From: Deltaproteobacteria bacterium
GTDB taxonomy: Bacteria > Desulfobacterota > Desulfomonilia > UBA1062
NCBI GenBank assembly: GCA_015486075.1
Contig: WFSG01000040.1
Coordinates: forward strand, 4,647-68,646
Length of the DNA stretch: 64,000 nucleotides
Direction: 5' to 3'
Part shown: positions 1,454 through 25,900 of the stretch, in pieces
Layout of the letters: every line of letters begins with the position of its first letter
Position numbering within the stretch: position 1 is the stretch's first letter
Position numbers and translations under genes: made by a program
Notes under the pieces: generated by a model
Database searches by the model: none
Told to the model about the DNA's origin: nothing
The model's input: only the letters and a program-made list of their open reading frames with translations

Positions 1454-3097
1454 ATGTCAAAGAGAGTCTATCAACCAGGGGAGGCCTACGACTACCAGCT
1501 TACAATAGGTCAACTATTGGAAACACCAAAGTTCTATGCACCTAACCAGGAAATCGTCTACAGGGATAAGCTTAGGTACACATACAAAGACCTCTTCGTG
1601 AGAATCAACCAGCTTGCTAATGTACTGACAGACCTAGGTATAAAACAAGGGGATACGGTATGCGTTTTCGATTTCGACTCTCACCGATATCTTGAGAGTT
1701 TCTTTGCCATACCCATGATAGGTGCTGTCATGCACACCATGAACTGGAGGCTTTCCCCTGAACAGATAATATACACAATGAACCACGCAGAGGATGATCT
1801 TGTAATCATACACAAGGAATTCCTACCCATACTCGAACAAATAAAGGATAAACTCACCACGCTTAAGAAGATAGTTGTAATAGCCGACGATGGCAAGATG
1901 CCAGAGACCAAGTTAAACATTGAAGGGGAATATGAAGATCTTCTGGGCAAGGCCTCCCCAGACTTTGATTTCCCTGACCTCGACGAGAATACAAAGGCAA
2001 GCACTTTTTACACAACCGGGACAACAGGCCTCCCAAAGGGGGTATATTTTTCCCACAGGCAGCTCGTTTTACACACCCTGGGCCTCATCTCAATAGGTGG
2101 ATGCTATGACTCCCCAACTGGCCTTTCTGTAAGAGACGTCTACATGCCACTTACACCGATGTTCCACGTGCATGCCTGGGGTGTACCTTACGCAGCTACC
2201 ATGCTAGGCATAAAGCAGGTGTACCCAGGCAAATACGAACCTGCCATGCTGCTCAAGCTGTTGCTGGAAGAAAAGGTGACATTCTCCCATTGCGTTCCCA
2301 CTATACTCCAGATGCTTGTAGGCAGCCCTGTTGCAAAGCAGGTTGATCTTTCCCACTGGAAAGTAATAATTGGCGGCGCAAGACTCCCCAAGGGCCTTGC
2401 AAAGGCTGCAACTGAACTTGGGATAACTGTGCAGGCTGCATACGGTATGTCAGAAACCTGTCCACTGGTGAGCATATCTAATTTCAAGCCACACATGTTC
2501 GAATGGGACAAAGAAAAACAGCTCGACATACTGGTAAAAACAGGCATACCTGCACCTATGGTAAAGGTTGAGATTGTGGACCCAAGTGGCAATCCACTAC
2601 CCCACGACGGAAAGGTAACAGGAGAGCTGGTAATAAGAGCACCATGGCTAACGCCAGGATATTTCAAGGATCCAGAGAAATCCAAGGATCTCTGGAGGAA
2701 TGGTTGGTTGCACACAGGCGACGTTGCATACATAGACGAGGAGGGCTATATCCAGATCACGGACAGGATAAAGGACGTGATCAAGAGCGGTGGAGAATGG
2801 GTATCATCCCTTGACCTGGAGAACCTTATGAGTATGCACGAAGCCGTACTCGAGGCGGCTGCAATCGGCATTCCCGACGAGAAATGGGGGGAAAGACCCA
2901 TGATGCTGGTCACACTTAAGCCTGGATTCGAGGACAAGGTAAAGGAAGAGGACTTCAAGGAATACATGAAGAAATGTGCTGAAGATGGCAAGATACCCAA
3001 GTACGGAGTACCTGACAAGTACGTTATTGTAGACCAGATCCCCAAGACAAGTGTAGGCAAGATAGACAAAAAAGAACTCAGAAAGATGTATCACTAG
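1454..3097 (+). CDS. AMP-dependent acyl-CoA synthetase/ligase (fatty-acid--CoA ligase family)
   Basis: Adenylate-forming motifs are present: TTGTTGLPKGV (A3 P-loop-like), YGMSET, and GWLHTGDVAYIDEEGYIQITDRIKDVIKSGGEWVSS (A8), with a C-terminal K. AAAGGAGG lies upstream of the ATG at 1454. Confidence 0.85.
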   Translation: MSKRVYQPGEAYDYQLTIGQLLETPKFYAPNQEIVYRDKLRYTYKDLFVRINQLANVLTDLGIKQGDTVCVFDFDSHRYLESFFAIPMIGAVMHTMNWRLSPEQIIYTMNHAEDDLVIIHKEFLPILEQIKDKLTTLKKIVVIADDGKMPETKLNIEGEYEDLLGKASPDFDFPDLDENTKASTFYTTGTTGLPKGVYFSHRQLVLHTLGLISIGGCYDSPTGLSVRDVYMPLTPMFHVHAWGVPYAATMLGIKQVYPGKYEPAMLLKLLLEEKVTFSHCVPTILQMLVGSPVAKQVDLSHWKVIIGGARLPKGLAKAATELGITVQAAYGMSETCPLVSISNFKPHMFEWDKEKQLDILVKTGIPAPMVKVEIVDPSGNPLPHDGKVTGELVIRAPWLTPGYFKDPEKSKDLWRNGWLHTGDVAYIDEEGYIQITDRIKDVIKSGGEWVSSLDLENLMSMHEAVLEAAAIGIPDEKWGERPMMLVTLKPGFEDKVKEEDFKEYMKKCAEDGKIPKYGVPDKYVIVDQIPKTSVGKIDKKELRKMYH

Positions 3098-3105
3098 AAG
3101 ATAAG

Positions 3106-3155
3106 GGGTCGGGCCTGTTAAGCTAGAGAAGTCCCTGCGAATCAAGGCCCGGCCC
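3106..3155. terminator. candidate bidirectional stem-loop between convergent genes
   Basis: GGGTCGGGCC at 3106-3115 can pair with GGCCCGGCCC at 3146-3155, giving a 10-bp stem with one G-T wobble and a large loop. It sits between the converging acyl-CoA ligase and ADH 3' ends. The T-tract is weak. Confidence 0.25.
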
Positions 3156-3182
3156 TGTTGTAGCTTCCTGGTTACCTAGGCC

Positions 3183-4190
3183 TCATGCTACTCTGATCAC
3201 AGCGTTCTGAGTCTCAAGCTCACCCTTCTTCGCTGCAATAAGCACATCACACAGGTCCTCGAGGGGATATACCTTTATAGAGGGCTTCAGGTTGAGCCTA
3301 TCTGCAATCTCAAGGAAGGCAGTTGCATCCTTCCTGTTCACGTTGTATAGTGTCTTTATATCCTTCCCCCACAGGTTTTTACTGTAATCATTGATAACTA
3401 TTTCAGATGAGCTAACCGGTGCAAGGACTAGAGTGCCACCCCTTTCAATAGATGCCAGGGCCAGCTCAACCAGGTTACCTGCCGGGGGAAAGATTATGGC
3501 GGAATCAAGACTATTTGGCATGGTTTCCTTTGTGGCGTCTGCCACCCATGAGGCCCCTGAAAGCCTCGCAGCCTGGATATTCTTCTCAGACCTTGTACTT
3601 ACGTACACTTCAATACCCAGGTATTTAGCCACCTCGAGCACGTAATAGGCGGTCGGCCCAAATCCAAAGATGCCGAGCCTGTCACCCTTTTTAGCACCTG
3701 TCAACACCAGTGAGCAGTATCCTGCTATACCAGGGCACATGAGTGGAGCAATGATCTCCGGTTCCAGGTGCATGTCTCTTAGGGAAAGAGCAAATTGCTC
3801 TTTTATAACCATATACTCGGCATAACCACCATCCGCGTCCCAGCCCGTTGCCTTAAACTCAGGGCAGTAGTTCTCTCTACCTGATGTACAGTACTTACAC
3901 CTGCCGCAAGTACTGTTTAACCAGCTCACACCCACCATGTCGCCCTTCTTGTGATTCATCACGCCTTCACCCAGCTCGTCTACTATGCCCACAACCTCAT
4001 GACCCAGGATTACAGGTGACCTCTTCAGGTCGAGGTCACCTTCTGCAATGTGCAGATCTGTCCTGCAGACCCCGCAGAACAGGTTTTTTATCCTGATTTC
4101 ACCCCTTGATGCATGTGGCTCAGGAACCTCGGCGAGCCTTAGGGGCCTGTTTTCTATCTTGTCCTGCGACTCAAGTAACCATGCTTTCAT
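3183..4190 (-). CDS. zinc-dependent alcohol dehydrogenase (MDR family)
   Basis: Zn-ligand region GHEVVGIV plus CGVCRTDLH; structural Zn cysteines C..CKYC; GxGxxG Rossmann motif; 335 aa. Confidence 0.85.
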   Translation of the reverse strand: MKAWLLESQDKIENRPLRLAEVPEPHASRGEIRIKNLFCGVCRTDLHIAEGDLDLKRSPVILGHEVVGIVDELGEGVMNHKKGDMVGVSWLNSTCGRCKYCTSGRENYCPEFKATGWDADGGYAEYMVIKEQFALSLRDMHLEPEIIAPLMCPGIAGYCSLVLTGAKKGDRLGIFGFGPTAYYVLEVAKYLGIEVYVSTRSEKNIQAARLSGASWVADATKETMPNSLDSAIIFPPAGNLVELALASIERGGTLVLAPVSSSEIVINDYSKNLWGKDIKTLYNVNRKDATAFLEIADRLNLKPSIKVYPLEDLCDVLIAAKKGELETQNAVIRVA

Positions 4191-4194
4191 AGTT

Positions 4195-4700
4195 CAACTC
4201 CTGTATAGGAACATGGCATAAGGCGTAGGGCACAAGGTATAAGGTGTAGGGTATAAGGTTTATGATTCAGGTTCCAGGTGCCAGGTACCAGGCAAATAAC
4301 CTGAAGGCTGACAGCAGAAAGCTGAAAGTTAATCTAAAACTTTGTGCCTTTGTGCCTCTGTGCCTTTGTCCCTATCTTTTAATCTTTGTCCCTTTTCTAT
4401 GCTTTAGCCTAATGCTTTTTGCCTTCCGCCTTAAACCTTATACCCTATACCTTCTATTATTTTTTACCTGACACCCGGTACCTGATACCTGGCACCCTGT
4501 CTTTCCCTACGCCTTCCGCCTTCCGCCTTCCGCCTTAAACCTTGTACCCTACACCTTGTACCTTAAACCTTTTATTATTATATCTTTTCTTTTACTTGGC
4601 ACCTGATACCTGGCACCCGAGACCTTGTCTTCTTTACCTTAAACCCTATACCTTGTACCTTGTACCCTGTACCCCATACCTTGTACCATCTCTTTATACC
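4195..4700. repeat. intergenic heptamer-repeat palindromic element, copy A
   Basis: A purine-rich heptamer array (GGCATAA/GGTATAA/GGTGTAG...) at about 4215-4260, a conserved core at about 4270-4420 (GGTGCCAGGTACCAGGCAAATAACCTGAAGGCTGA...CTTTGTGCC...), and pyrimidine-rich heptamers (CCTTATA/CCCTATA/CCTTCCG/CCTTGTA) out to 4700. An internal inverted repeat pairs GGTGCCAGGTACCAGG at about 4278 with CCTGATACCTGGCACC at about 4480 and 4600. A second copy lies at 7665-8040. Confidence 0.8.
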
Positions 4701-6280
4701 ATCTCTACCCCATACTTTTTATCATCAACTTGCCCACGTCTTAAAACCTTCATGGCCTCTGGAAGGAAATCCATTATGTCCCTGGCAGTCATGCCGTCTT
4801 CACCTTTCTTGCTTGCAGCAAGGTCGCCTGAGAGGCCGTGCATGAATACACCCATCCTTGCTGCGTCCTCAAGTTTCAGTCCAAGTCCAAACATGGCTGC
4901 AATTGTGCCTGTGAGCACGTCACCTGAACCTGCCGTTGCCATGCCTGGATTCCCGGTCATGTTTATGAACATGCTTCCGTCCGGGTAGCCTACAAGGGAA
5001 TGTGCACCCTTTAGCACTATTATGCTATCAAACCTTGAACACGCATCTTTAAGCACCTGTATCCTGTTACCTGTAACCTCACGTATGCCCAGGCCTACCA
5101 GCCTTGACATCTCGCCTGGATGAGGGGTGAGTATGGTCTTTGCCTTTCTCTGCTTCAGGATCTCTGGCTTACTGGATACGGCTGTTATCCCGTCCCCGTC
5201 AACAAGTATTGGTTTTTCAATCTTTAGGACCAGGTCCCTTACAAGTTGCTGTGTCTCCTCATTTAGAGAAATACCAGGACCTATAACCACCATGTCAACC
5301 TTCTCCGAAAGTTCTAAGAGGAAGCTCATGTTTTCCATGGATATGCTACCAGAAGCTGTCTCCTTCAAGGGGACGAAAACAATTTCGCTACCCCTAGTAG
5401 CAACGGAAGATACCATGGAGGCAGGTAGGGCAAGTCTCGAATATCCTCCCCCTGCTCTTAGAAATGACATGGCAGCAAAATACGGCGCACCAAAATAGGT
5501 TGATGCACCTGCTATAAAAAGCACGTCCCCGAAGTCACCCTTGTGTCCGTCGGTAGCCCTTGAAACAAGGCCTACGGGTTCATTTGTCTCCACCTTAAGG
5601 GAATCAGAGTCGTAGAGCGAGGGCGGGAAGGATATGTGAGACACGTAGAGTCTACCGCATAGTTCGTACCCAGGAAAGAGCATGTTACCTATCTTGGGAA
5701 GTCCAAAGGTAACGGTATGATCTGCCCTTACAGCAGTACCCATGACGCTACCTGTATTGCCGTTTACCCCGGAAGGTATGTCTACGCTAAAGACCTTTTT
5801 TCTGCTCTCGTTTATGAGATCTATGGCATCTCTATATATGCCTTCAACATCTCTTGACAGGCCAGTACCAAATATCGCATCAACGATGGCATCCGAGTGC
5901 ATGGTCTCCTTTCTTGCGTCTTCCATGGTAGACTTAGTGCCAACCCTTACAATGTCGATCGCTAGCCTGGATACGATCTCGAAGTTCCTTTTTGCTGCAC
6001 CCTGGTACTTGCCTGGATCTCCAAGCATGAACACCTTGACCCTGCCGCCAGCCGAGTGTATCTTCCTGGCAACAACCAGGCCATCCCCGCCGTTGTTACC
6101 TATCCCAGAAAAGACAACAAACCTCTTTTCCTTTATACCGAGTTCTCTTAGTATAACAAAGTAGACTGCCTGGCCCGCGTTTTCCATGAGTATCTCGTCA
6201 GGTATGCCTAGGTTTTCAATTGCATGCCTGTCCATGGCCCTCATCTGTTCGACCGTGCTTATTTTCATGTCACCCTCCAA
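4694..6280 (-). CDS. nnr: bifunctional NAD(P)H-hydrate epimerase / ADP-dependent dehydratase (Nnr; YjeF-N + YjeF-C)
   Basis: The N-terminal YjeF_N domain carries GIGNNGGDGLVVAR. The C-terminal carbohydrate-kinase-like domain carries GPGISLNEE and a GSGDVLTG motif; 528 aa. Confidence 0.85.
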   Translation of the reverse strand: MEGDMKISTVEQMRAMDRHAIENLGIPDEILMENAGQAVYFVILRELGIKEKRFVVFSGIGNNGGDGLVVARKIHSAGGRVKVFMLGDPGKYQGAAKRNFEIVSRLAIDIVRVGTKSTMEDARKETMHSDAIVDAIFGTGLSRDVEGIYRDAIDLINESRKKVFSVDIPSGVNGNTGSVMGTAVRADHTVTFGLPKIGNMLFPGYELCGRLYVSHISFPPSLYDSDSLKVETNEPVGLVSRATDGHKGDFGDVLFIAGASTYFGAPYFAAMSFLRAGGGYSRLALPASMVSSVATRGSEIVFVPLKETASGSISMENMSFLLELSEKVDMVVIGPGISLNEETQQLVRDLVLKIEKPILVDGDGITAVSSKPEILKQRKAKTILTPHPGEMSRLVGLGIREVTGNRIQVLKDACSRFDSIIVLKGAHSLVGYPDGSMFINMTGNPGMATAGSGDVLTGTIAAMFGLGLKLEDAARMGVFMHGLSGDLAASKKGEDGMTARDIMDFLPEAMKVLRRGQVDDKKYGVEMV

Positions 6281-6319
6281 GATAAGTACTTCATGAAACC
6301 GAATGCTAGATTAAATACA

Positions 6320-6351
6320 CGTTGCATTCAAGAACTTATACGTATGCAACG
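6320..6351 (-). terminator. candidate hairpin downstream of ycaO
   Basis: CGTTGCAT at 6320-6327 pairs with ATGCAACG at 6344-6351 (8-bp stem, 16-nt loop), 66 nt past the ycaO stop. On the minus-strand RNA it is followed by GUGUAUUUAAUCU, which is only moderately U-rich. Confidence 0.25.
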
Positions 6352-6416
6352 ATGGTGTTGTATTTTCGTATCTTACTATTGTCGTGGCAAAGATAAATCT
6401 TAAAAGCCTTAACCAC

Positions 6417-7655
6417 CTAAGGTGTTGTATCAAATGTAACCACAGGCCTATAAAAAAGGTAGCCGTTTTTCATGCCGGACATGATGACGCGCACCACGGG
6501 TATACCCAGGTCCGGGTGCGTCAGGTCAAAGGCGAACACATCGTGACTTAAAGATAGCCTGTCCAGTATGCTTGTAAGATCACACGGATATGGATCCCCC
6601 GCATCTTTTATGGCCACAGGCCCCTTGCACCTGTTTATCCAGAAGTCTTCAGGCACGTATGCACTGTACCTCTCGGGTGGCACCCTGGTCTTTATGTACC
6701 TTACAATGGGCAAATACTGTCTCCTCGTCCTCCACTCGTAGAAGAAAGTGAATGCCCTTTGCTGGACGAGTTCCAGTATTGCCTGGTTAAGGGCTACTCT
6801 CAGGTCTACATGGGAAGCCGTACCCATGAAGAACGTGCGGCAGTACTCATCCCAGGCAGTTGCAGCAACCGAGTAGAATCCTTCGTCAAGGGAGGTATAA
6901 TAGAAGGCCCTCAGACCAAGCCCCTGGTCTTTGAACAGCTCCAGCCAGGTCTCGAAAAAATCGTCACCTTCTAAAGATAACTCAGTCGGTAGAGGTTCAA
7001 TTCCCCTAGAGATCGTGAACTGGAAATCCCTCTCTATCACCTCGCATATACCAGATATTATGGCATCATCCAGCGTGTTACCAGCTGCAAGCCCGTTGGA
7101 AAAGAAGAAACCCAGCCTCCTAGTCTCAAAGCCTTCAAAGGGATAGGCAGAGTCAGGTATATCCATGAGAACAAAGTCAACGGGTATGAATACCTGCCTT
7201 TCATGAAGGAGATCCGTGGCATAATACCACGTGAGTTCCTTGTCCTTTGAATATTCCACCCCTGGTGGCAGATACAATGTCTCTGGGTCCAGGGCATCTG
7301 GCGCAAATTCATTGTACGTCCCAACCTTGATGCGGCCCTCTAGAGGTGTGTAGGATGCAGTGTACCTCTCTATTGCCTCCATGATACAGGAAAGTCTTGA
7401 CTGGTCAGGGCTAAGCCCTTTACCCGAGTGCACGTAGGAGAAGTCTAGGTTACCCCACTCTTTAAGATTGCTGAAATCTACTGAGCCAAGCATGGAGGGC
7501 CTCAAGGTAAGGTGAACAGGGATACCAAGGCTGTCCACAAAGCTTATATCAATGGGATCCACTGCATTTATAACACCTAAGAGGGGCTCCACCCGGCCAA
7601 GGGTAGTTCCGACATCAGCTTTTCTCCAGTATAGTTTGGAATCGAGATTATTCAT
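6417..7655 (-). CDS. ycaO: YcaO-domain protein (standalone; no TfuA or E1-like partner in the window)
   Basis: YcaO ATP-binding signature region GKGLSPDQSRLSCIMEAIERY and a C-terminal ...GIPVVRVIMSG. The start was set at the ATG at 7655 (MNNLDSKLYWRK); the longer ORF-track N-terminus (MYLKPCTLYLVPWALCL) is an in-frame translation of the heptamer repeats. No clear RBS. Confidence 0.75.
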   Translation of the reverse strand: MNNLDSKLYWRKADVGTTLGRVEPLLGVINAVDPIDISFVDSLGIPVHLTLRPSMLGSVDFSNLKEWGNLDFSYVHSGKGLSPDQSRLSCIMEAIERYTASYTPLEGRIKVGTYNEFAPDALDPETLYLPPGVEYSKDKELTWYYATDLLHERQVFIPVDFVLMDIPDSAYPFEGFETRRLGFFFSNGLAAGNTLDDAIISGICEVIERDFQFTISRGIEPLPTELSLEGDDFFETWLELFKDQGLGLRAFYYTSLDEGFYSVAATAWDEYCRTFFMGTASHVDLRVALNQAILELVQQRAFTFFYEWRTRRQYLPIVRYIKTRVPPERYSAYVPEDFWINRCKGPVAIKDAGDPYPCDLTSILDRLSLSHDVFAFDLTHPDLGIPVVRVIMSGMKNGYLFYRPVVTFDTTP

Positions 7656-7664
7656 ATTATAAAA

Positions 7665-8040
7665 GCAGGACATAAGGCACAGGGCCCAGGGTACAAGGTA
7701 TAAGGTACAGGGTTTAAGGTACAAGGTGCAAGGTGTAAGGTACAGAAGACAAGGTTTCGGGTGCCGGGTATCAGGTACCAGGCAAATGACCTGGAGGCTG
7801 AGAGCTAATCTAACCCTTTGTCCCTTTGTGCCTTTTCTATCCTTGCGCCTTCTGCCCTACGCCTTCCGCCTTAAACCTTATACCTGGAACCCGGCACCTG
7901 AAACCCGATATCTGATACCTGTATCTTTTACCTTAAACCCTATACCTTAAACCCTATACCCTATACCTTAAACCCTATACCCTGTACCTTATACCTTGTA
8001 CCCTATGCCTTCCGCCTTATGCCTTATGCCTCTAACCTTA
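7665..8040. repeat. intergenic heptamer-repeat palindromic element, copy B
   Basis: A purine-rich heptamer array (GTACAAG/GTATAAG/GTTTAAG/GTGCAAG) at about 7690-7750. The core at about 7755-7870 is about 85% identical to the core of copy A (GGTGCCGGGTATCAGGTACCAGGCAAATGACCTGGAGGCTGAGAG...CTTTGTCCCTTTGTGCC...GCCTTCCGCCTTAAACCTTATACC). An inverted segment CCTGGAACCCGGCACC lies at about 7883. More than 15 CCYTRYA heptamers follow at about 7930-8040. Confidence 0.8.
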
Positions 8041-8892
8041 CACCCCAAAGTCCCTTACAGGCTTTAATTCTTCCATGGGATAGACCTGACCCTGCTTTGG
8101 AGGCATGGAGTTGTACACCCATTCAATATCAACACTACTAAGATTTATGCCCAAGTGCTTTTCTTCCTTTCTGTAAACACCCCTTACCAGCACGTCCTCC
8201 ATGTCAAGGCTCAGTGCAAAGATCGCGACCTCTGAACCATCGGGTATCCTGGATAGTTCCTCTGAATAGGCAAGTGGAGAGAAAACAAGTCTCGTGCTAT
8301 CTGCAGCCTGGCACTGGAGAACGGGTATTATGGCAGGGAAACCATCGTCATCCACGTACGATAGGAATTTCAATGCGTTCAGGCGGTTGAAAAGGCCTTC
8401 AGCCCAGGGTTTAAGGATGGTCCCGTTGCCATGGGAAGAGAAGGCGCCCTTTGCTAGTTTTGTCATGAGCAATGACAAGGCTATGCTTCCAAGGGGGAGT
8501 TTTTCTTTTCCATAAGTCTCTACCAGGTCCATGTAGTGTATGGTATGGATACCCATGTAGGCATTGTAGCGAAACATTGGTTTCTTATTAAACATCTCGT
8601 ATTCCTTGCCCTCTTTCTCCTCGTGGGTCCATCTGGCTTTGCCGCGCCACAGGTCACGCTTTAACGTCATTATCAAGAAACCTGTGTTAGGGTTAGTCTT
8701 CACGTTCTTCTTGCTCTGGCCCTCTGTAAACTGCCCCCATACGACTTCTGTTGGGGTCCTTGCCTGTAATGCCGTTATAAGCGTTACATGTGGTAGTCCC
8801 TGGGGATTTATTGTTGCCAACAGTCCTACCTTTACCTCAGGTTCGAATTCCTTCATGTCCTCTGGTTCAAACTCCCTTAGTATCTTTTTCAT
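8038..8892 (-). CDS. pyridoxamine 5'-phosphate oxidase-like FMN-binding split-barrel protein (two PNPOx-like halves)
   Basis: About 284 aa with two repeats of a PNPOx-like core (VGLLATINPQGLPHVTLI... / FLSYVDDDGFPAIIPV...). GGAGGATACC lies upstream of the ATG at 8892. Only the fold family is recognisable. Confidence 0.5.
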   Translation of the reverse strand: MKKILREFEPEDMKEFEPEVKVGLLATINPQGLPHVTLITALQARTPTEVVWGQFTEGQSKKNVKTNPNTGFLIMTLKRDLWRGKARWTHEEKEGKEYEMFNKKPMFRYNAYMGIHTIHYMDLVETYGKEKLPLGSIALSLLMTKLAKGAFSSHGNGTILKPWAEGLFNRLNALKFLSYVDDDGFPAIIPVLQCQAADSTRLVFSPLAYSEELSRIPDGSEVAIFALSLDMEDVLVRGVYRKEEKHLGINLSSVDIEWVYNSMPPKQGQVYPMEELKPVRDFGV

Positions 8893-8920
8893 GGTATCCT
8901 CCTTCGCTCTTTAGGGTATT

Positions 8921-9967
8921 TCAAGGAAGATTGCAGCTCTTCACCAGGCGTAGTTTTGGCCCGCTTTCTTCTTTTTCCTTCTCACCCTCCAGCTTTGTAA
9001 GACCTGTCCATACTATTATCGCAGAATTTACTCCGCTTTGCTTGGCCACATGGGCCATAGAATTCATGAAGTCCTTGGTGAGAAGTTCTTTTCCCTTGAA
9101 TTTCCAGTCAATACCAAGCCTTTCGTACTTGTCAACACACATGTTGTTGAAAGAGCATAGTTCCCAGCGGCTCACAACATCTTCCAGATTACTTTTTATA
9201 AACCTGCCTATGCCCTCTATGTTCTCAGGGGTTGCCGTGGCATCCGGTATTATGGGTGTTCTTATCCACATCTCTGAAGGTCTATCATGGTCTTTCATGT
9301 ATTCCCGTACGTATAGTACGTTCTCTAGGATCCTGGCATTGGAATGGCCCGTAAATTCCTGGTGTTTCTTTTCATCTATCTCCTTTATGTCAAATAGTAC
9401 GAGGTCAGTATAGGGCAGCACCATATCAAGTGCCTGCTTAGAGCACATGCCACATGTATCCAATGTTGTATGGAGACCCTTTTCCTTTAGAGCCCTGAAG
9501 AAAGCTGCCACGAACGGCGCCTGTAAAGTGGGCTCACCACCGGAGGCAGTGATCCCACCGCCAGAGTTATCAAAATATGCACGGTCCTTTATCACCTCGT
9601 CCAGCAGATCATCAAGCTTCCATTCCTTGCCTATCATCTCCATTGCCGTCGAAGGACATTCCTCAGTGCATATACCACATGCATCGCAGAGCTCCCTATC
9701 TATAACCATGCCGTCCTTTGTTAGCGTAAGTGCCTGCCTAGGACAGACATTAACGCATGTCATGCAACCTATGCACCTGTTACCCATCCACTGTATCTGG
9801 GGCATGGGAGAAATGGTCTCAGGGTTATGGCACCAGGTGCACTTCAAGGAGCAACCTTTAAAAAACACAGTTGTCCTTATACCTGGCCCGTCTTCAGTGG
9901 ACATGCGCTGTATGTTTGCGACCAAAGCACTCGGTATTCCAGCACTCTTATCCTTTGCCTTTACCAT
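8921..9967 (-). CDS. glycyl-radical enzyme activating enzyme (radical SAM, with two extra ferredoxin-type 4Fe-4S motifs)
   Basis: DGPGIRTTVFFKGCSLKCTWCHNPE (CxxxCxxC), plus CIGCMTCVNVCP and CDACGICTEECP inserts typical of non-PFL GRE activases. It lies immediately downstream of the GRE. Confidence 0.85.
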   Translation of the reverse strand: MVKAKDKSAGIPSALVANIQRMSTEDGPGIRTTVFFKGCSLKCTWCHNPETISPMPQIQWMGNRCIGCMTCVNVCPRQALTLTKDGMVIDRELCDACGICTEECPSTAMEMIGKEWKLDDLLDEVIKDRAYFDNSGGGITASGGEPTLQAPFVAAFFRALKEKGLHTTLDTCGMCSKQALDMVLPYTDLVLFDIKEIDEKKHQEFTGHSNARILENVLYVREYMKDHDRPSEMWIRTPIIPDATATPENIEGIGRFIKSNLEDVVSRWELCSFNNMCVDKYERLGIDWKFKGKELLTKDFMNSMAHVAKQSGVNSAIIVWTGLTKLEGEKEKEESGPKLRLVKSCNLP

Positions 9968-9980
9968 CTACAGATCTCCT

Positions 9981-12503
9981 TTAAAACTTGCTGTGACTTT
10001 CCCTGGCGATTATCTCGTCCTGGAGTTCGCGGCCTATACTTGTGAAGTATGCGTTGTAACCCGTTACCCTAACGAGGAGATTCCTGTAATTCTGGGGGTG
10101 TTCCTGTGCCTCCTTTAACATGCCTGCATCAACCATGTTTATCTGCAGAGATGAGCCACCGTTCTCAGCATATCCTCTCAGGAAGGCCTTAAATTTCTCC
10201 TTGTGATCCGGATCCCTTATAAGGGATGGGTTGAAGGTAATAGTGTGGCTTGCACCGTTGGGAAGGTTACTCAGGTATTCATTCCAGTCACCCTTGCCAT
10301 CCATGACCTTTCCACCAAGTGCCTTACCTACCGAGTTTGCATTGGCCGTGGGTCCATTTATGTCTGCCCCGTTGGATGGGCATATGGCATTGGATAAAAA
10401 CTCGCCTTTTCTCCTTCCATCTGGACTTGCAGGGAGTATAAAGCTATCTGCTATCCAGTAGTTCCAGCTTAGCATGCCTGGCCTGAACTGCCTGTTATTG
10501 CAGTGCGTCTTGTACTTCCATACCTCTCCTGACCACAGGTCCATTACCTTTGTTGCCATCTCGTCTGCCTCGTCGTCATCCCTTCCGTACTTAGGTGCCC
10601 TGTTCTTTGCCTTGGCCTGAAGTACCTCGTGGCCTTCCCAGTTATCTTTAAGTGCATTGATAAGTTCAGCCATGGTGCACTCTTTCTTGTCAAACACCAG
10701 GTACTTTATGGCAAGGAGAGAATCCACTGTGCTTGCAAATGTTACACCCTCAACCGTGGTAAAGAAGAGCTCCGGGCCTCCGCGAGTTACGTCAAGCGCC
10801 TTTTCAGCACAGCCCTTAACAAGGCAGGAAAGATAGGGAGTAGGCGAAAACTTTGTCCTTGCGGCTTCTGATGCCTCAAACAAATCCACGCATTTCTTTA
10901 CTATATATCTAGTTTGTTCCACGTAAGCATCCCAGAATTCTTCCCATGACCTGAACTTAGTTGCATCACCCGTGTCCGGACCATCCTGCCTTATACGATC
11001 CTTTTTACCAGTTATAGGATCAACAAAGGCCACCAGATCCTTGCCACCTGTCAGCGCAAGTTCAACTGCCTTCAGGAGGTTAAGATTGTTATCAACCGTG
11101 CCTGAGCGGTCATTACCTACCATGGTGTTCTCAAGGCAACCAACAGAGGCGTAGTCGTAAACATTATCCTCGTTTATGAGATCCTCTTTACCTGCCATCC
11201 TTGCCTCGCGTAGCATACCTGCCATAGAGCGCTCATCAAAATTCAATAGGAAAGGTGATCCCTGGCTGGTTGATATCATATCAACAACCTTGTCCAAGAG
11301 TTCGTCGGGACTGTTCCTGTGCAGACGTATATTCGGCTTTGGCTCAAGTATGGGAGAGAGCTCGTCTATTACTTCCAGCATTGCAAACGTAAGCTCATTG
11401 GTCATGTCCTTACCGCCTCTACCCAAGCCGGAAAGGCTTATAAGCTGGCCGTAGCCAGACGTGATTCCCTGGTTACCCCCGAGCTTCATCATGGCATCGT
11501 AGGCGGTATTGGCGTGTATCCAGAAACACTTGAGTATCTCCTTACCGAACTCCCTTGTCATGCCATGCTCTATCGAGTGCCTCCAGTAGGGGAGCAAATA
11601 CTGGTCTATTCTACCAAAGGACACGCCAGGTCCAGGATAGTTCTCGTCGCTCATTATAAGCATGTGGTTGAGCCACAGTGCCTGGACCGCCTCCCAGAAT
11701 GTCTCGGCAGGCTCCCATGGAACTTTATCCAGGTTCTTGGCCATTTGTATGAGTTCTTGCTTTCTTTGTTGATCTGTCTCCTTTTCACTGAGCTCCCTGC
11801 ACAGGTCAGCATACTTCTTTGCAAGGTCCCTTGGCATGGTAGCTGCTGTCATCATTGCCCTTAGCTGCTCACCCTTAGGGCCTCTTTTCTCCTCTTCTGT
11901 CAGATTCTCGTATCTCTCCTTAAGGTCAGCGTATATACCCTTGAATCCTATTTTCAGTGCATTTTCGTGGTCTGGTATAATATGGCCTGAAGTGGCACCT
12001 GCATTTCCGTATCCATGGTTATGAAACCACATCAGCTTTGCTCGGGCACCCTGTTTACCATCATATATCATCCTGTCTCGTTCCTTTGCCTCCTGCTCTG
12101 TCCAGCACCTTGATGCCAAGATGTTAAAGCGTGCACCTGCTATGAGATCACCTGGGAGTATCTCCTGCGGCACGTAGTTAACCATGACCTCTTTTATGAA
12201 CCAGGCCCTTCTCTCAGGAAGACTCCACTTCCAAAAATCTTCGTGGAGCTTTACCGGCCTTGCTGCCTGGTATGAAGACGACCTGAATGTCTGAAAAAAG
12301 GTATATGTCTCGGGAACCACGTACCAGCCAATCTCATCAAATAGTACATCCCAAGGTGTGCCTGTTGTCCACGTGGTGAATTCATTGTTCCACTCGCGCT
12401 CAACACCCTTGAAGTAATAATCCCTGAGCCACTTGATCCTCTCGGATAAAGGTCCTGGCTCCTTTAACTTATACATAGGTCTCTTGGCCGTGCTCGTATC
12501 CAT
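9981..12503 (-). CDS. glycyl radical enzyme, PFL2/glycerol-dehydratase-like family, substrate unknown
   Basis: 840 aa. C-terminal glycine-radical motif LLVRVTGYNAYFT; catalytic cysteine region YASVGCLENTM; N-terminal ...ERIKWLRDYY... typical of the DhaB1/CutC/HypD-class of GREs. Confidence 0.85.
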   Translation of the reverse strand: MDTSTAKRPMYKLKEPGPLSERIKWLRDYYFKGVEREWNNEFTTWTTGTPWDVLFDEIGWYVVPETYTFFQTFRSSSYQAARPVKLHEDFWKWSLPERRAWFIKEVMVNYVPQEILPGDLIAGARFNILASRCWTEQEAKERDRMIYDGKQGARAKLMWFHNHGYGNAGATSGHIIPDHENALKIGFKGIYADLKERYENLTEEEKRGPKGEQLRAMMTAATMPRDLAKKYADLCRELSEKETDQQRKQELIQMAKNLDKVPWEPAETFWEAVQALWLNHMLIMSDENYPGPGVSFGRIDQYLLPYWRHSIEHGMTREFGKEILKCFWIHANTAYDAMMKLGGNQGITSGYGQLISLSGLGRGGKDMTNELTFAMLEVIDELSPILEPKPNIRLHRNSPDELLDKVVDMISTSQGSPFLLNFDERSMAGMLREARMAGKEDLINEDNVYDYASVGCLENTMVGNDRSGTVDNNLNLLKAVELALTGGKDLVAFVDPITGKKDRIRQDGPDTGDATKFRSWEEFWDAYVEQTRYIVKKCVDLFEASEAARTKFSPTPYLSCLVKGCAEKALDVTRGGPELFFTTVEGVTFASTVDSLLAIKYLVFDKKECTMAELINALKDNWEGHEVLQAKAKNRAPKYGRDDDEADEMATKVMDLWSGEVWKYKTHCNNRQFRPGMLSWNYWIADSFILPASPDGRRKGEFLSNAICPSNGADINGPTANANSVGKALGGKVMDGKGDWNEYLSNLPNGASHTITFNPSLIRDPDHKEKFKAFLRGYAENGGSSLQINMVDAGMLKEAQEHPQNYRNLLVRVTGYNAYFTSIGRELQDEIIARESHSKF

Positions 12504-12538
12504 AACCCACCTCCCCTTTTGTTTCTACTTGTATTTTT

Positions 12539-13300
12539 CTAAGGCAAGGCTCGGCCTTGTTCGTGTTGGCCAGCCTTCTGTATCGCCTTCTTTAGATACC
12601 TTCTACCATGCTCGAGAAGTTCCTCCATTATGCCAAGTGCCCCGGGCGTATCCTTACATGCTATGGCCAAGACAATGTCTCTGTGATACCCGAATACCCG
12701 GGGTATAACAGATGAATCCTGAAAGAAGCGCCCGGATAGATTCGTGTACACGGGCTTGAAGGACCTAATAAGAAAAGGATAAACTATATTTCCTGAGGCA
12801 AGTGCGATCAGGTGATGAAACTCAAAGTCTATCTCTGTAACTGAATCCACGTCTGTTTTATCAAGCTCCTTTTCTCTCTCTATGATATCATTTAACGAGA
12901 CCATATCTTTTTTTGTCCGGTTCTGGGTAGCAAGCCTCAGCGTCTCCATCTCTACCAGGTACCTCATGTCCAAGAGACTGTCTAAAAGACCGGGCTCGAG
13001 GTCTCCCCTGTAATAATTAACAAGGGAATTGAGTAGCACGAGGGATCCCTCCATCCTGTAATCATTTACCACTGTACCTACCCTGGGCTTCATGGTGACA
13101 AGTCCCTTTGATGCAAGCTCCAACAGACCCTCGTGCACCACTGGCCTGCTCACCCCGAGTTGCAATGCAAGCTCCCTCTCTGATGGCAGCTTTTGACCTA
13201 TCGAGAGCTTCCCAGATAGTATGAGCTCTTCAAAACGTGTTACAAAGACGTCCTTTAGACTCGACCTCTCAATCGGCCTTAACATGTCTTTCATATGCAT
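12539..13300 (-). CDS. GntR-family transcriptional regulator (FadR-like, wHTH + FCD domain)
   Basis: N-terminal GntR HTH (LPSERELALQLGVSRPVVHEGLLELASKGLV) and a C-terminal FCD-like helical domain. It is the first gene of the minus-strand gntR-GRE-AE block. Confidence 0.8.
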   Translation of the reverse strand: MHMKDMLRPIERSSLKDVFVTRFEELILSGKLSIGQKLPSERELALQLGVSRPVVHEGLLELASKGLVTMKPRVGTVVNDYRMEGSLVLLNSLVNYYRGDLEPGLLDSLLDMRYLVEMETLRLATQNRTKKDMVSLNDIIEREKELDKTDVDSVTEIDFEFHHLIALASGNIVYPFLIRSFKPVYTNLSGRFFQDSSVIPRVFGYHRDIVLAIACKDTPGALGIMEELLEHGRRYLKKAIQKAGQHEQGRALP

Positions 13301-22958: not shown

Positions 22959-25900
22959 ATGAGAACAAACAAGACACCATTTGTCAGCATAGGTATGCCT
23001 GTATACAATGGCGAGCGTTACATAAAGCAGGCACTGGATTCTTTACTATCCCAGGACTACGACAACTTTGAGTTAATAATCTCTGATAATGCTTCTACCG
23101 ATAGTTCGCCAGATATCTGTCTTGAGTATAAAAATAAGGATGGCCGTGTCAAGTTTTACCGCAATGATAAGAATATTGGACCTAATGATAACTTCAATCG
23201 TGTCTTTGAACTATCATCAGGCCAATATTTCATGTGGGCAGCGTGTGATGACCTATGGACACCTAATTACATATCATCACTTGTAAAAGCTTTAGCCTCT
23301 GATAAAAATGCAGTTCTAGCATTTTCACAACTGAACAATATTGACGAAAACGGTAATATATGCCGTGAATACCCGAACCTCCATCTTCTATCATCAAAGG
23401 CCCCCCTGCCTGACAGGCTAAATAATATAATATGGTTCAGGGAAGAGGATGGGAAGGCAAACCTAGTATACGGCCTCATCAGGAGTGATATCTTAAAGAA
23501 GATTGACATATTCAAATCTTACGGTTTTGGAAACTGGGGTGTTGATTATCTTTTAGTATTTAGACTGGCGTTGTTCGGCAAATTTTTATTTGTAAATGAT
23601 TCTTGTTTTTACAAGAGACTGACAGAAGAAAACATCTCGAGATGGGCAAACACTTCTCCTGAAGAGTACTGCCACCTTATTCAGGGTTACTTCCAGGGCT
23701 ACAGAACCATTATCAAAGAAAGCAATCTACGAGACATTGAGAAAGATACACTACTGATGTCCATCTCTGCAAGGGAAGGCCATTGGTACTCCCGCATCCT
23801 AGGTTCGAATACTATTGAAGATACAGCTTCCAAAATAAGATCCATGGTTGAGAAAACTCACGATTATACAGCTCCATCCATCATAAATAATAAACAACAT
23901 CAGCACACACCCAACATGGACAGGCAGGATACCAACACAAATAAGCCTTCCCAGATAATAGATAAGACAATACTATTTCTGAGTGTTGGTAGTATCAATT
24001 ACGATTGTAATATCAACTTTTATGAACCCCTAAAGGCCATCTTCAAGAAAGCAATAAACTACAACTACATGGAAAGGCTAGAAATCTTAGGTAAAAAAGC
24101 GATGAATGAAGAGATTATCCACATAGTAAAAAGCAAAAAGCCCGACTATGTATTCATTCACACCTATCAGGATCAAATAGAACTATCCACTTTGGACAAG
24201 ATAAACATGCTTGGTGTAAAAACAATTGCATGGTTTTCAGATGATCACTGGCGCTTTGATGATTATTCAAGATTCCTGGCACCGCATGTCTTTTGCTCAA
24301 TAACAACCGACAAATACGCGGTGGATAAATATAAGAGTCTGGGATTTAACGTCATAAAATCACAATGGGCCTCAAATCAACACCATTATAGAAAGACCAA
24401 TACTCCTCTATTGTATGACGTTACCTTTGTGGGACAAAACTATGGCAAAAGAAAAGATAACTTATTTTATCTAAAAACCAAGAATGTCCCACTTAGCGTA
24501 TTTGGAAGAGGTTTTGGGACATTCCTTGAGTTCGATGAGATCATCAAGATATTCAATGCCAGCAAGATCAATCTTAACTTTAGCGGCAGCTCCCGGGACG
24601 ATAACATCAAGCAAATAAAGGGAAGGATTTTTGAAGTCCCTATGTGTAAAGGCTTCCTGTTAACCGAGTACGCCGAAGGCATAGAGGAGTATTTCGAAAT
24701 AGGCAAGGAAATAGAGTGTTTTGATGATATAAAGGATGCCCTTGATAAGATCCAATACTACCTAAAACACGAAGACAGGCGTCTAGAGATAGCCGAGAAA
24801 GGCCATATACGTGCACTAAGGGATCACACATGGGAAAAGAGATTAAGGGATTTGTTCCTCGAAGTGGAAAGACTTGAGAAAAGCTCAAGCGTGCCTCACG
24901 GGCATGACTGGATAACTACCCAGAAAGACATGCAAAAAGAAATCAGCGATCACAAGAAACATAATATCCCTTACAGGAAAAAGTATGAGATGGGTTTTCA
25001 TGGCGACAGTTACCTGCTTACGCTCATAGACCATGTGCTTACAAGGTGTGATGCATTTATAGAAACAGGGACATACATGGGTGATTCCCTTGAATATGTA
25101 GCTCGAAACTTCAGCCATCTCCATATATTCTCATGCGAACCAAAGACAGAACACATAACAGTTGCCAGAAACAAACTCCGTCCTTACCTACATAATATTA
25201 CACTCGACCAGGTTAAGTCACCAGATTTCTTATATAAAATAGTGGAAGATCACCCCGATCTTGTCAACAAGGATGTGGCCTTCTGGCTTGATGCTCACTC
25301 ATTTGGATATAAATGGCCATTGAAAGATGAGATAAGGTTTATAACAGGGACATTCAAGAAGGCATACATCTTTATAGATGACTTCAAGATACCAGGCAGG
25401 CCTGAATTTCAGTATGACATCTACGATGGTCAAGAGTGTTCCTGGGAATTTATCCATGATGAGATGTGTACGGATAAGGAATATTTAATATATCTACCCA
25501 AATACAAAGAGAAAACATCCAGGCATCATCCCCTTGTAGGGTGGGCCCTTATAGAATTTGGCCACGCAACTATGCAAATACCAGACTCACTAAAAGATCA
25601 CCTCATCCAAACATCTGCCTATAGACTGCCAGCCGAGGGCAAGTTTGATGAAGAACATCATGATCATGATGTATACAATGAATCAGTGTCATACGGGGAG
25701 AACTCCAACAGTTATATGGCAGATCACTGGTCAGATAAATCCGTCCACCCTGGTAGCGAAAAGAATAAGAACGCTAAACACCCGATTCGTCCATCAGGGG
25801 GTAAAAAGTATGTGTCAAGAGAGCATATAAAGCATGTTCTTCTAACTACCTCGGCTGCACCTAACCAGTCTCCTTTCTCAACGACAGAGAAAAGACCTCC

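Follow-up and report, generated by a model that had tools for sequence, protein, structure and literature searches.

Mosaic elements of degenerate G-rich heptanucleotide repeats flank nnr-ycaO in an uncultured deltaproteobacterium

G-rich heptamer repeats were noticed in cyanobacteria decades ago, and short tandemly repeated repetitive (STRR) heptamers are known from heterocystous cyanobacteria. Two elements of a comparable kind, R1 and R2, are the subject of this article. They flank the gene pair nnr-ycaO in a stretch of 64,000 nt from a deltaproteobacterium (contig WFSG01000040.1, positions 4,647 to 68,646), which is designated the window in the following. Heptamers are the most abundant class of long simple sequence repeats (LSSRs) according to Mrazek et al. 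and possibly arise by polymerase slippage (summarised in MacGregor, 2015, PMC4679880). In Xanthomonas and Nostoc, GGGAATC and GGGGAYT heptamers are located with their G-rich strand at most ~50 nt from the 5' neighbouring open reading frame (ORF), and inverted pairs of them can form stem-loops (Rehm et al., 2015, PMC4692102). Heptamers of the sequence TAACTGA are common to Beggiatoaceae, Cyanobacteria and Bacteroidetes, with no known mechanism of transfer (MacGregor, 2015, PMC4679880).

R1 and R2 belong to this published class of intergenic G-rich heptanucleotide repeats (LSSRs, STRR-like). A sequence-only reading of the window had described them as compound palindromes and had not recognised them as a known REP, MITE, CRISPR or riboswitch family. 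They indeed lack a match to Rfam, to clustered regularly interspaced short palindromic repeats (CRISPR) and to intrinsic terminators, yet they fit the G-rich heptanucleotide class (PMC4692102, PMC4679880).

Array composition, strand polarity and architecture

R1 takes up the entire spacer of 503 nt between nnr and a zinc alcohol dehydrogenase (ADH) gene (4191-4693) and R2 the entire spacer of 382 nt between the gene of a PNPOx-like protein and ycaO (7656-8037). These limits follow from ORFs and Pfam matches and, for R1, also from Tandem Repeats Finder (TRF). All flanking genes are on the minus strand, which is the sense strand of both elements. The sequence-only reading had correctly placed the elements in a co-directional minus-strand block around nnr-ycaO; its limits are corrected here to the intergenic borders. 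TRF reported arrays with periods of 7, 14, 21 and 28 nt in the window only at 4211-4687 and 7672-8031, with a 21-nt super-period as the best match (86%), and one period-8 array in each element. The pattern (GGYNNNR)x6+GGY has 24 matches in the window, all of them in R1/R2, compared to 0.00 expected from 100 shuffles. No further array was found in the window in an autocorrelation scan for period-7 GG/CC, low-stringency blastn yielded no R1/R2 remnants elsewhere in it, and the other 56 kb of the window as well as 10 kb past its end are free of arrays. The feature is genuine and more than a local duplication: both elements consist of 7-nt units arranged head-to-tail, as in heptanucleotide simple sequence repeats, far beyond chance.

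Among 57 in-phase units, G1, G2 and Y3 are invariant (57/57 each), and A6 (55/57) and R7 (56/57) nearly so. With positions 4 and 5 free to vary, there are 19 unit types, and the consensus is GGYNNAR. A coding role was rejected: 32 of the 57 units hold TAA or TAG, and the 7-nt period runs through all three frames. Likewise, a CRISPR array can be dismissed, as the 7-8 nt units are contiguous and lack spacers, whereas this class needs repeats of 23-50 nt and unique spacers. The likeness of CCCTAAA/CCCTATA units to telomeric heptamers, pointed out previously, is compositional only, since the units have a variable middle and are located inside the chromosome.

R1 and R2 obey on both strands the rule that the G-rich strand adjoins the ORF on its 5' side. 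On the sense strand, the G-rich arms start 0-6 nt after the upstream stop codons. On the plus strand, the G-rich arm of R1 begins 24 nt from the ADH start codon and that of R2 17 nt from the ycaO start codon. A general 7-unit pattern was used to assess this polarity in genome contigs; it has at least 120 matches in many phyla, mostly perfect variable-number tandem repeats, and is a polarity test, not a census of the family. Among the matches listed, 64 of 83 heptamer arrays are nearer to the 5' ORF (median 19 vs 143 nt; p = 3.7e-7). A C-rich partner is found downstream in 4 of 90 of these heptamer arrays and in 37 of the 120 octamer arrays listed for metagenome contigs (see below), and upstream in none of either kind. 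Solitary octamer arrays among the latter have a median distance of 46 nt from the 5' ORF vs 149 nt from the 3' ORF. The "compound palindrome" arises because arrays on opposite strands of one spacer each follow the polarity rule. Beyond this rule, the inverted arms need no separate explanation.

On the plus strand, both elements have the same order: G-rich arm, module B, a unique stretch (GGCAAATRACCTGRAGGCTGA) with module D, module C, C-rich heptamers, inverted module B and a long C-rich arm (4635-4687 in R1, 7929-8044 in R2). In R1, the G-rich arm (4215-4263, from pattern matches) comprises 7 units, GGCATAA to GGTTTAT, and corresponds to the C-rich 3' arm of the mRNA. The first part of the core (4264-4339, defined by alignment with R2 and a third copy, R3, see below) contains GGYRCCN heptamers (module B), GGCAAATAACCTGAAGGCTGA and CTGAAAG-type heptamers (module D). 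It is followed by octamer module C (4340-4400, TRF period 8) with CTTTGTGC and CTTTGTCC units, which read GGSACARA on the sense strand. The C-rich side (4401-4687) has three C-rich heptamer blocks (4421-4453, 4500-4574 and 4635-4687) separated by inverted B modules (4466-4499 and 4597-4634) and AT-rich linkers. The sense strand of R1 carries three successive G-rich A+B units and only one C-rich arm.

R2 is more regular. Its G-rich arm of ~10 units (7672-7745, from TRF and pattern matches) is followed by a core (7746-7845, from the R1/R2 alignment) with module B (AAGACAAGGTTTCGGGTGCCGGGTATCAGGTACCAGG), module D (CAAATGACCTGGAGGCTGAGAGCTAATCTAA) and octamer module C (CCCTTTGTCCCTTTGTGCC...). The C-rich side consists of C-rich heptamers (7846-7884), an inverted B module (7885-7928) and ~16 C-rich heptamers (7929-8044). 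The TRF extent of this last array is 7929-8031, and pattern matches reach 8044, with the last units covering the TAA (8038-8040) that ends the upstream gene. Matches at 7-nt steps span 7930-8044, in agreement with the 15 or more consecutive units counted before.

The core is 84% identical between R1 and R2 over 50 nt (4266-4315 vs 7756-7805) and 86% identical over 37 nt (4321-4357 vs 7797-7833), and a 14-nt (two-unit) indel separates the two matching blocks. In addition, an identical 24-mer, GCCTTCCGCCTTAAACCTTATACC, is present in both elements within the C-rich heptamer stretch after module C. The previously described core of ~85% identity is, hence, real, but for the most part it consists of heptamers (GGYRCCN, CTGAAAG) and octamers (CTTTGTSC) itself. 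Similarly, the arm-core-arm layout holds in general but not in its simple form for R1, which has one G-rich arm and three C-rich modules on the plus strand. The arms are reverse complementary as proposed (70-80% over 65-92 nt); the best inverted match of the region, however, is located between the elements (4588-4687 vs 7690-7789, 100 nt, 85%) and exactly brackets nnr-ycaO.

Further copies, the sister species and related arrays

Contigs of the same species were available from four independent assemblies: one NCBI metagenome-assembled genome (MAG), two ENA metagenome assemblies and one Logan assembly. All are short-read assemblies, and together ~81 kb of the source genome are covered. The same elements are carried by the contigs of all four. 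Over 14.1 kb, the window differs from contig L001 by 59 substitutions and by just two internal indels, one of 21 nt in R2 and one of 7 nt in R1. The 21-nt (3-unit) deletion of L001 maps to the C-rich side of R2 (7846-8044). In a sister species, two 7-nt indels, both within the same spacer, distinguish strain L005 from strain L253. This means that, in these short-read assemblies, unit number is polymorphic between close strains in steps of 7 nt. Such assemblies break at the arrays or bridge them by N runs: contig L003 extends from within R2 to within R3, with a gap of Ns in R1 (L003:3370-3470), and many heptamer matches in public genomes are also located at contig ends. The number of units in a MAG is therefore uncertain.

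The same genome contains two more copies 4-6 kb beyond window position 1, both in divergent-promoter contexts. R3 (L001 18169-18863) is situated between divergent aminotransferase and Asn/Asp-tRNA synthetase-type genes and shows the complete series A, B, C, D, B', A' together with a further inverted C module. R4 (L001 20246-20607) lies between a tRNA gene, upstream of its promoter, and a LysR-type gene. At R3/R4, L001 and L002 differ by unit changes and a 14-nt deletion. At least four copies are thus present, all within ~15 kb. The A+B unit of ~100 nt is found in either direction in R1, R2 and R3 with 81-85% identity. R1 and R3 also share a C unit of 63 nt, which matches at 94% and is inverted in one relative to the other, and the core can be aligned across these three copies. 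Judged by these alignments, the element family is a mosaic of modules with a size of 360-700 nt.

In the sister species, YcaO is 78% identical and the gene order GntR, PFL, activase, PNPOx, YcaO, Nnr, ADH is the same. Its spacers comprise 128 and 156 nt and hold short homologous arrays. The nnr stop codon is followed by GGCATCAGGCGCCAGGCACCAGGGACCAGG, which can be aligned to module B of R1, and in the spacer orthologous to R3, module C is 24/25 identical. Short homologous arrays were found in L005 at three of the four orthologous element sites and none at the R4 site. As far as the comparison of these spacers goes, the arrays are old residents that expanded in the lineage of the window by 7-base steps. 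At the nnr stop codon of the window (4685-4712, minus strand), a 13-nt tandem duplication (GAGATGGTATAAA GAGATGGTACAAG) is present, and the ...GGTATAA stop region of nnr itself resembles the seed of a heptamer array; the sister species has GGTATAAGG at this place. The suggestion that a mobile element carried ycaO-nnr in as a cassette has to be abandoned, because the sister species has the same gene order with short arrays; in addition, neither a target-site duplication (TSD) nor a transposase was found in the window.

Similar arrays occur in other lineages. In Syntrophaceae bacterium UBA3084 (L018:5711-5830 and 6815-6950), AAGGTNN units, including GGTACAA as in the window, form hairpins with a G-arm followed by a C-arm. 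One is located between divergent genes, i.e. in a promoter region, the other between convergent genes. This suggests that the hairpin habit is widespread in Syntrophales and Syntrophobacterales-like lineages. With two more copies in the same genome, short versions in the sister species and these arrays in a Syntrophaceae MAG, the recurrence that the sequence-only reading had named as a test was found: the elements form a recurring family.

The 24-nt module C string GGGACAAWGGCAYAGAGGCACAAA is present in at least 120 metagenome contigs with 32-70% GC, which, among the matches listed, derive from sediment, wetland, groundwater and soil samples. A typical octamer locus among them has 3-4 octamers, a loop of ~40 nt and inverted octamers. 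Such octamer hairpins, (GGSACARA)3-4, loop, (TYTGTSCC)n, are abundant in environmental contigs (L130-L249, e.g. L135, L154, L163); in those listed, the G-arm always comes first, and they often begin directly past a stop codon. The loop frequently reads GCAGAAA...TTTTTCTGC. No paper containing the octamer strings was found in the searchable literature, where a string search returned unrelated primers only. One of the contigs with module C is Chitinophagaceae-like, as its arginine decarboxylase is ~80% identical to that of Flavisolibacter. In Agriterribacter (Chitinophagaceae, L045), GCTGAAA heptamers come after arrays of GGTGTAG and GGTATAG; these are the unit types of modules A and D. A "vocabulary" of units is, hence, encountered across phyla: in Agriterribacter, in Flavisolibacter-like contigs with module C octamers (L146, L196) and in L135, where TCAGTTA, the reverse complement of MacGregor's TAACTGA, and GCTGAAG heptamers are located beside an ORF start. 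Among the 120 octamer loci listed, A-, B- and D-type heptamer arrays are essentially absent, with one D-type array in L135. An apparent B module in L133 proved to be the coding C-terminus of an OmpR-type regulator. In the SDBU01 metagenome (L131, L132, L138, L152, L174, L199, L221), a multi-copy element has the same 24-mer in conserved flanks (...CGAAAATAAATAAA[24-mer]GTTTCAGAGATGTAGGGGCAAACGGCGTTTGCCCCTCTTCGGATTCAACGACGAGTCAGGTTACTATTATTTTCAT). It lacks an Rfam match and may represent either a mobile-element terminus or an undescribed non-coding RNA.

The genes around R1 and R2, assigned from ORFs and Pfam, are all encoded on the minus strand: a PFL-like glycyl-radical enzyme (9981-12503), its radical-SAM activase (8921-9967), the PNPOx-like protein (8038-8892), YcaO with 412 aa (6417-7655), Nnr/YjeF (4694-6280) and the ADH (3183-4190). 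Together with a GntR/FadR regulator, the genes for the PFL-like enzyme, activase, PNPOx-like protein, stand-alone YcaO, Nnr and Zn-ADH constitute a conserved cluster (window 8038-13300), which is common to the sister-species contigs L005/L253. The 23-codon N-terminal extension of the ycaO ORF (7656-7724, minus strand; LYLKPCTLYLVPW...) is translated from the C-rich arm. It was rightly suspected to be an artefact of the array, as the arrays do generate spurious ORFs; translation, Pfam match and homologues fit the real ATG at 7655. Apart from this locus, the window encodes an ORF of 2769 aa (22959-31268, plus strand) within a stretch of 39-44% GC at 21-29 kb. It is a fusion of approximately six GT2 glycosyltransferase domains, a B12-binding/radical-SAM module, a GT1-like domain and TPR repeats. 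Its neighbours upstream of fliS, an RmlC-like epimerase, a C-methyltransferase and further GT/TPR proteins, form a sugar-modification cluster, and the region may be a glycosylation island for flagellin or the surface.

Predicted folding and possible origins

Because the flanking genes are co-directional, we infer that the elements are transcribed. The sense strands have predicted folds of -191.9 kcal/mol (R2, z -11.3) and -170.7 kcal/mol (R1, z -8.9), the antisense strands of -160.1 kcal/mol (R2, z -10.6) and -138.2 kcal/mol (R1, z -6.5), with z-scores measured against shuffled sequences. Of the long imperfect hairpin or cruciform proposed before, the hairpin is predicted on both strands, but cruciform extrusion is unlikely with arms of 70-80% complementarity and loops of 90-170 nt. 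The predicted sense stem of R2 reaches to within 3 nt of the upstream stop codon on one side and 4 nt of the ycaO AUG on the other. That of R1 leaves exactly 17 nt unpaired, which contain the AGGAG Shine-Dalgarno (SD) sequence of ADH. The arms are 64-80% complementary at every 7-nt shift: pairing is independent of one particular alignment because all units share the five-base core ARGGY. Each arm is 74-80% complementary to its own partner and 85% to the arm of the other element. Since the own-partner match is below the cross-element match, a specific, compensated structure is not supported. The sense strand is G-rich and C-poor (G/C 142/79 in R1 and 108/73 in R2), and its folds comprise 18 (R2) and 23 (R1) G.U pairs vs 7 and 10 in the antisense folds.

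Known RNA families, riboswitches among them, and signals were not detected. Rfam has no relevant match at E <= 1 in 3900-8400, and in 15 related loci only tRNA at gathering score. No intrinsic terminator is located in R1/R2, and counts over 3000-13000 equal the shuffle expectation. The same holds true for promoters in this region, with one weak -35/-10 match in R1 (9/12) that is not meaningful. An attenuator or terminator, one of the roles considered earlier, is therefore not supported, all the more as other copies reside in divergent promoter regions.

The explanation that we consider the most probable, albeit with considerable doubt, combines growth by slippage under the polarity rule with local recombinational spread and tolerance in the operon through folding of the transcript on itself. 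R1 and R2 would belong to a mosaic family of short-period intergenic repeats that is specific to the lineage. G-rich GGYNNAR arrays would grow and shrink via slipped-strand mispairing, each with its G-rich strand adjoining the ORF on its 5' side; a second array would precede the downstream start on the antisense strand. The inner modules, i.e. GGYRCCN heptamers, the unique stretch with CTGAAAG heptamers and GGSACARA octamers, would complete the element. Modules might have been copied between neighbouring spacers; the most likely route is ectopic recombination mediated by the arrays, or template switching, rather than transposition. The spacer RNA would fold back into a stem of ~135 pairs, in which the arms could pair in any alignment shifted by whole units via the ARGGY core. 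The base of the stem would bring the upstream stop codon beside the downstream SD sequence and start codon and leave the latter free; the surplus of unpaired RNA would be G-rich and C-poor. Such self-folding may be the reason why an operon tolerates an untranslated insert of 380-500 nt. Consequences for the processing or stability of the mRNA, if any, would be secondary, as with repetitive extragenic palindromic (REP) sequences. The anatomy, the recurrence, the 7-nt steps of the indels, the polarity rule, the expansion in place relative to the sister species and the predicted folds rest on the data presented above; slippage, recombinational spread, transcription and tolerance through self-folding are what we infer from them.

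Several observations weigh against this scheme. The conservation of A6 in 55/57 units, which the search pattern did not constrain, and of the invariant GG looks like purifying selection or sequence-specific recognition, and a neutrally decaying microsatellite seems a poor fit to fixed A6 and GG beside free positions 4-5. The same unit types are found in unrelated phyla (GGTATAG plus GCTGAAA in Chitinophagaceae; the octamer string at 32-70% GC), and slippage private to one lineage does not predict that units are shared across phyla. The persistence of arrays at the same sites in different species hints at a function. The G.U excess of the sense strand may point to selection at the RNA level; in the predicted folds, it fits a transcription-linked C-to-T bias equally well. 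Furthermore, slippage and recombination are read from patterns, and copy numbers are uncertain since the repeats interrupt the short-read MAG assemblies. With ~81 kb examined, the close spacing of the copies could also result from sampling.

The main competitor is a selected cis-acting RNA element, for which the giant hairpin with arms pairing in any whole-unit alignment is the function. It could act as an insulator inside the operon that keeps the spacer double-stranded so that Rho cannot load, it could juxtapose stop and start codons for coupled translation, or it could be an RNase III or stability site that sets the levels of PFL, activase and PNPOx against those of YcaO-Nnr and ADH. Very stable sense folds that close at the stop codon and leave SD and AUG free, the sense-strand excess of G.U pairs (18 and 23 vs 7 and 10) and the G-rich, C-poor surplus on the sense strand argue for it. 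Periodic conservation, the absolute order of G-arm and C-arm among the 120 octamer loci listed and the shared vocabulary keep it alive; the ARGGY core guarantees whole-unit pairing, and arrays persist at orthologous sites across species. However, complementarity to the own partner (74-80%) is no higher than that between the elements (85%), the two strands have similar z-scores, and the G.U bias could stem from the above-mentioned C-to-T mutation. Moreover, R3 and R4 are located in divergent promoter regions outside operons, the sister species functions with spacers of 128-156 nt, and no Rfam family matches. An RNA function such as insulation, processing or protection from Rho is, hence, unlikely, although it outranks every other alternative.

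A related proposal with a distinctly small probability regards the heptamer and octamer units (ARGGY-core, GCTGAAA, GGSACARA) as a sequence-constrained vocabulary used across phyla and not as random slippage. The units would always be arranged as G-arm and then C-arm beside ORF ends and would be written or read by a conserved factor. Candidates would be Rho, the ribosome, a protein that binds RNA or DNA, or an activity that adds repeats from a template. If so, R1 and R2 would represent a widespread system of intergenic RNA for regulation or insulation, of which they would be exceptionally large and composite cases.

The remaining alternatives are less likely than an RNA function. A non-autonomous mobile element, akin to miniature inverted-repeat transposable elements (MITEs), REP doublets forming hairpins (REPINs) or bacterial interspersed mosaic elements (BIMEs), would use the heptamer arms as terminal inverted repeats (TIRs) for a transposase encoded elsewhere in the genome. 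Multiple intergenic copies with inverted arms, a core with 81-94% identity at at least three loci in both orientations, assemblies that break at the repeats and the abundance of related octamer hairpins in metagenomes are consistent with such an element. On the other hand, it has neither defined ends nor a TSD: the arms vary in length and run into the stop codon, no direct repeat flanks R1 or R2, and the sole local duplication is the 13-nt tandem repeat at the nnr stop codon. The sites that should be empty in the sister species hold short homologous arrays, the copies are restricted to ~15 kb of the 81 kb examined, and conserved synteny excludes the cassette version. Among the 45 window ORFs of at least 80 aa, Pfam scans and precomputed Pfam hits of matching contigs revealed no transposase, REP-associated tyrosine transposase (RAYT), integrase or reverse transcriptase. 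Mobility is improbable.

Still less probable is a role at the DNA level, in which phased ARGGY units would serve as cooperative protein-binding sites, comparable to the heptad iterons of omega/ribbon-helix-helix proteins with 7-bp units and 21 bp corresponding to two helical turns, or in which the G-rich arms would form G-quadruplexes (G4) as proposed for GGGNATC repeats. The strict periodic conservation of GG..AR with free positions 4-5, the 21-nt super-period as best TRF match (86%), the occurrence of the same unit types across phyla and the formation of G4 in vitro by the known heptamer class (PMC4692102) agree with this idea. But the motif (G3+N1-7)x3 G3+ does not occur on either strand of R1/R2, which have two-tetrad GG motifs only; canonical G4 motifs are absent because the units carry GG and not GGG or GGGG. 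No candidate binding protein is encoded nearby, the arrays are found in any kind of intergenic context, and the cruciform is unlikely for the reasons given above.

Finally, a recombination substrate that inverts the 3-kb segment between 4588-4687 and 7690-7789 in the manner of phase variation, as the earlier interpretation had also considered, is highly improbable: although this 100-nt inverted repeat is the longest and best of the region and flanks the gene pair exactly, all four same-species assemblies and all sister-species contigs show one orientation, 85% identity with short perfect runs makes a poor RecA substrate, and an inversion would merely uncouple housekeeping-type genes from their operon.

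Comparison with known repeat classes

The heptamers of Rehm et al. (2015, PMC4692102), a subset of the LSSRs of Mrazek et al. (2007), are the closest relatives of R1 and R2. In both cases, tandem 7-nt units are mostly intergenic, inverted pairs can form stem-loops, and slippage is proposed as origin. Sister species retain both at the same gene borders, where they vary in length and sequence; here, this holds for 3/4 sites. The differences are considerable: the units here are GGYNNAR with GG tracts instead of GGG/GGGG, they are far more degenerate (19 unit types in 57 units), and each spacer combines both orientations with a conserved non-repeat core and an octamer module in a mosaic of 360-700 nt. 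They also differ in their host, an uncultured deltaproteobacterium (Desulfobacterota). The TAACTGA repeats (PMC4679880) are alike in that several heptamer families co-occur intergenically near start and stop codons; a post-transcriptional role was suggested for them but not shown. They have other unit sequences, are mostly direct repeats with 2-6 copies in Beggiatoaceae, and neither a conserved core nor an inverted-arm layout was described.

REP, BIME and REPIN sequences (PMC3116915) are, like R1 and R2, intergenic, multi-copy and composed of modular units in both orientations. They form mRNA hairpins, are tolerated in operons and have known effects on mRNA stability and processing. R1, R2 and R3 share with REP/BIME the mosaic of alternating orientations, a likeness confined to the layout. 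Each REP is a discrete imperfect palindrome of 20-40 nt, unlike the tandem heptamers here, and the recurring units of R1-R3 (~100 nt and 63 nt) are not palindromes. REPINs are mobilised by RAYTs and present in hundreds of copies, whereas the elements here have fuzzy ends and slippage-type length variation, with no RAYT seen in the window. MITEs such as Correia, ERIC, RUP and Nezha are likewise small, non-coding and intergenic with inverted ends and are sometimes co-transcribed. Their fixed length, defined TIRs, TSDs and clean presence or absence between strains have no counterpart here: instead of empty sites, the orthologous spacers of L005/L253 contain short arrays.

New in R1 and R2 are the highly degenerate units with a fixed ARGGY core, the union of both orientations, core and octamer hairpin module in one mosaic, and the copying of this mosaic among neighbouring spacers of an uncultured deltaproteobacterium. 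They extend the heptamer phenomenon to uncultured Desulfobacterota from sediment and provide a simple explanation for "palindromic" repeat elements, namely two arrays that follow one strand rule each. Whole mosaic units, and the octamer hairpin module of very different genomes, can apparently be copied between spacers. Annotators should mask such spacers, because assemblies break there and false ORF extensions as in the case of ycaO arise. The fixed GG..AR with two free positions and the absolute order of G-arm and C-arm are testable handles on function.

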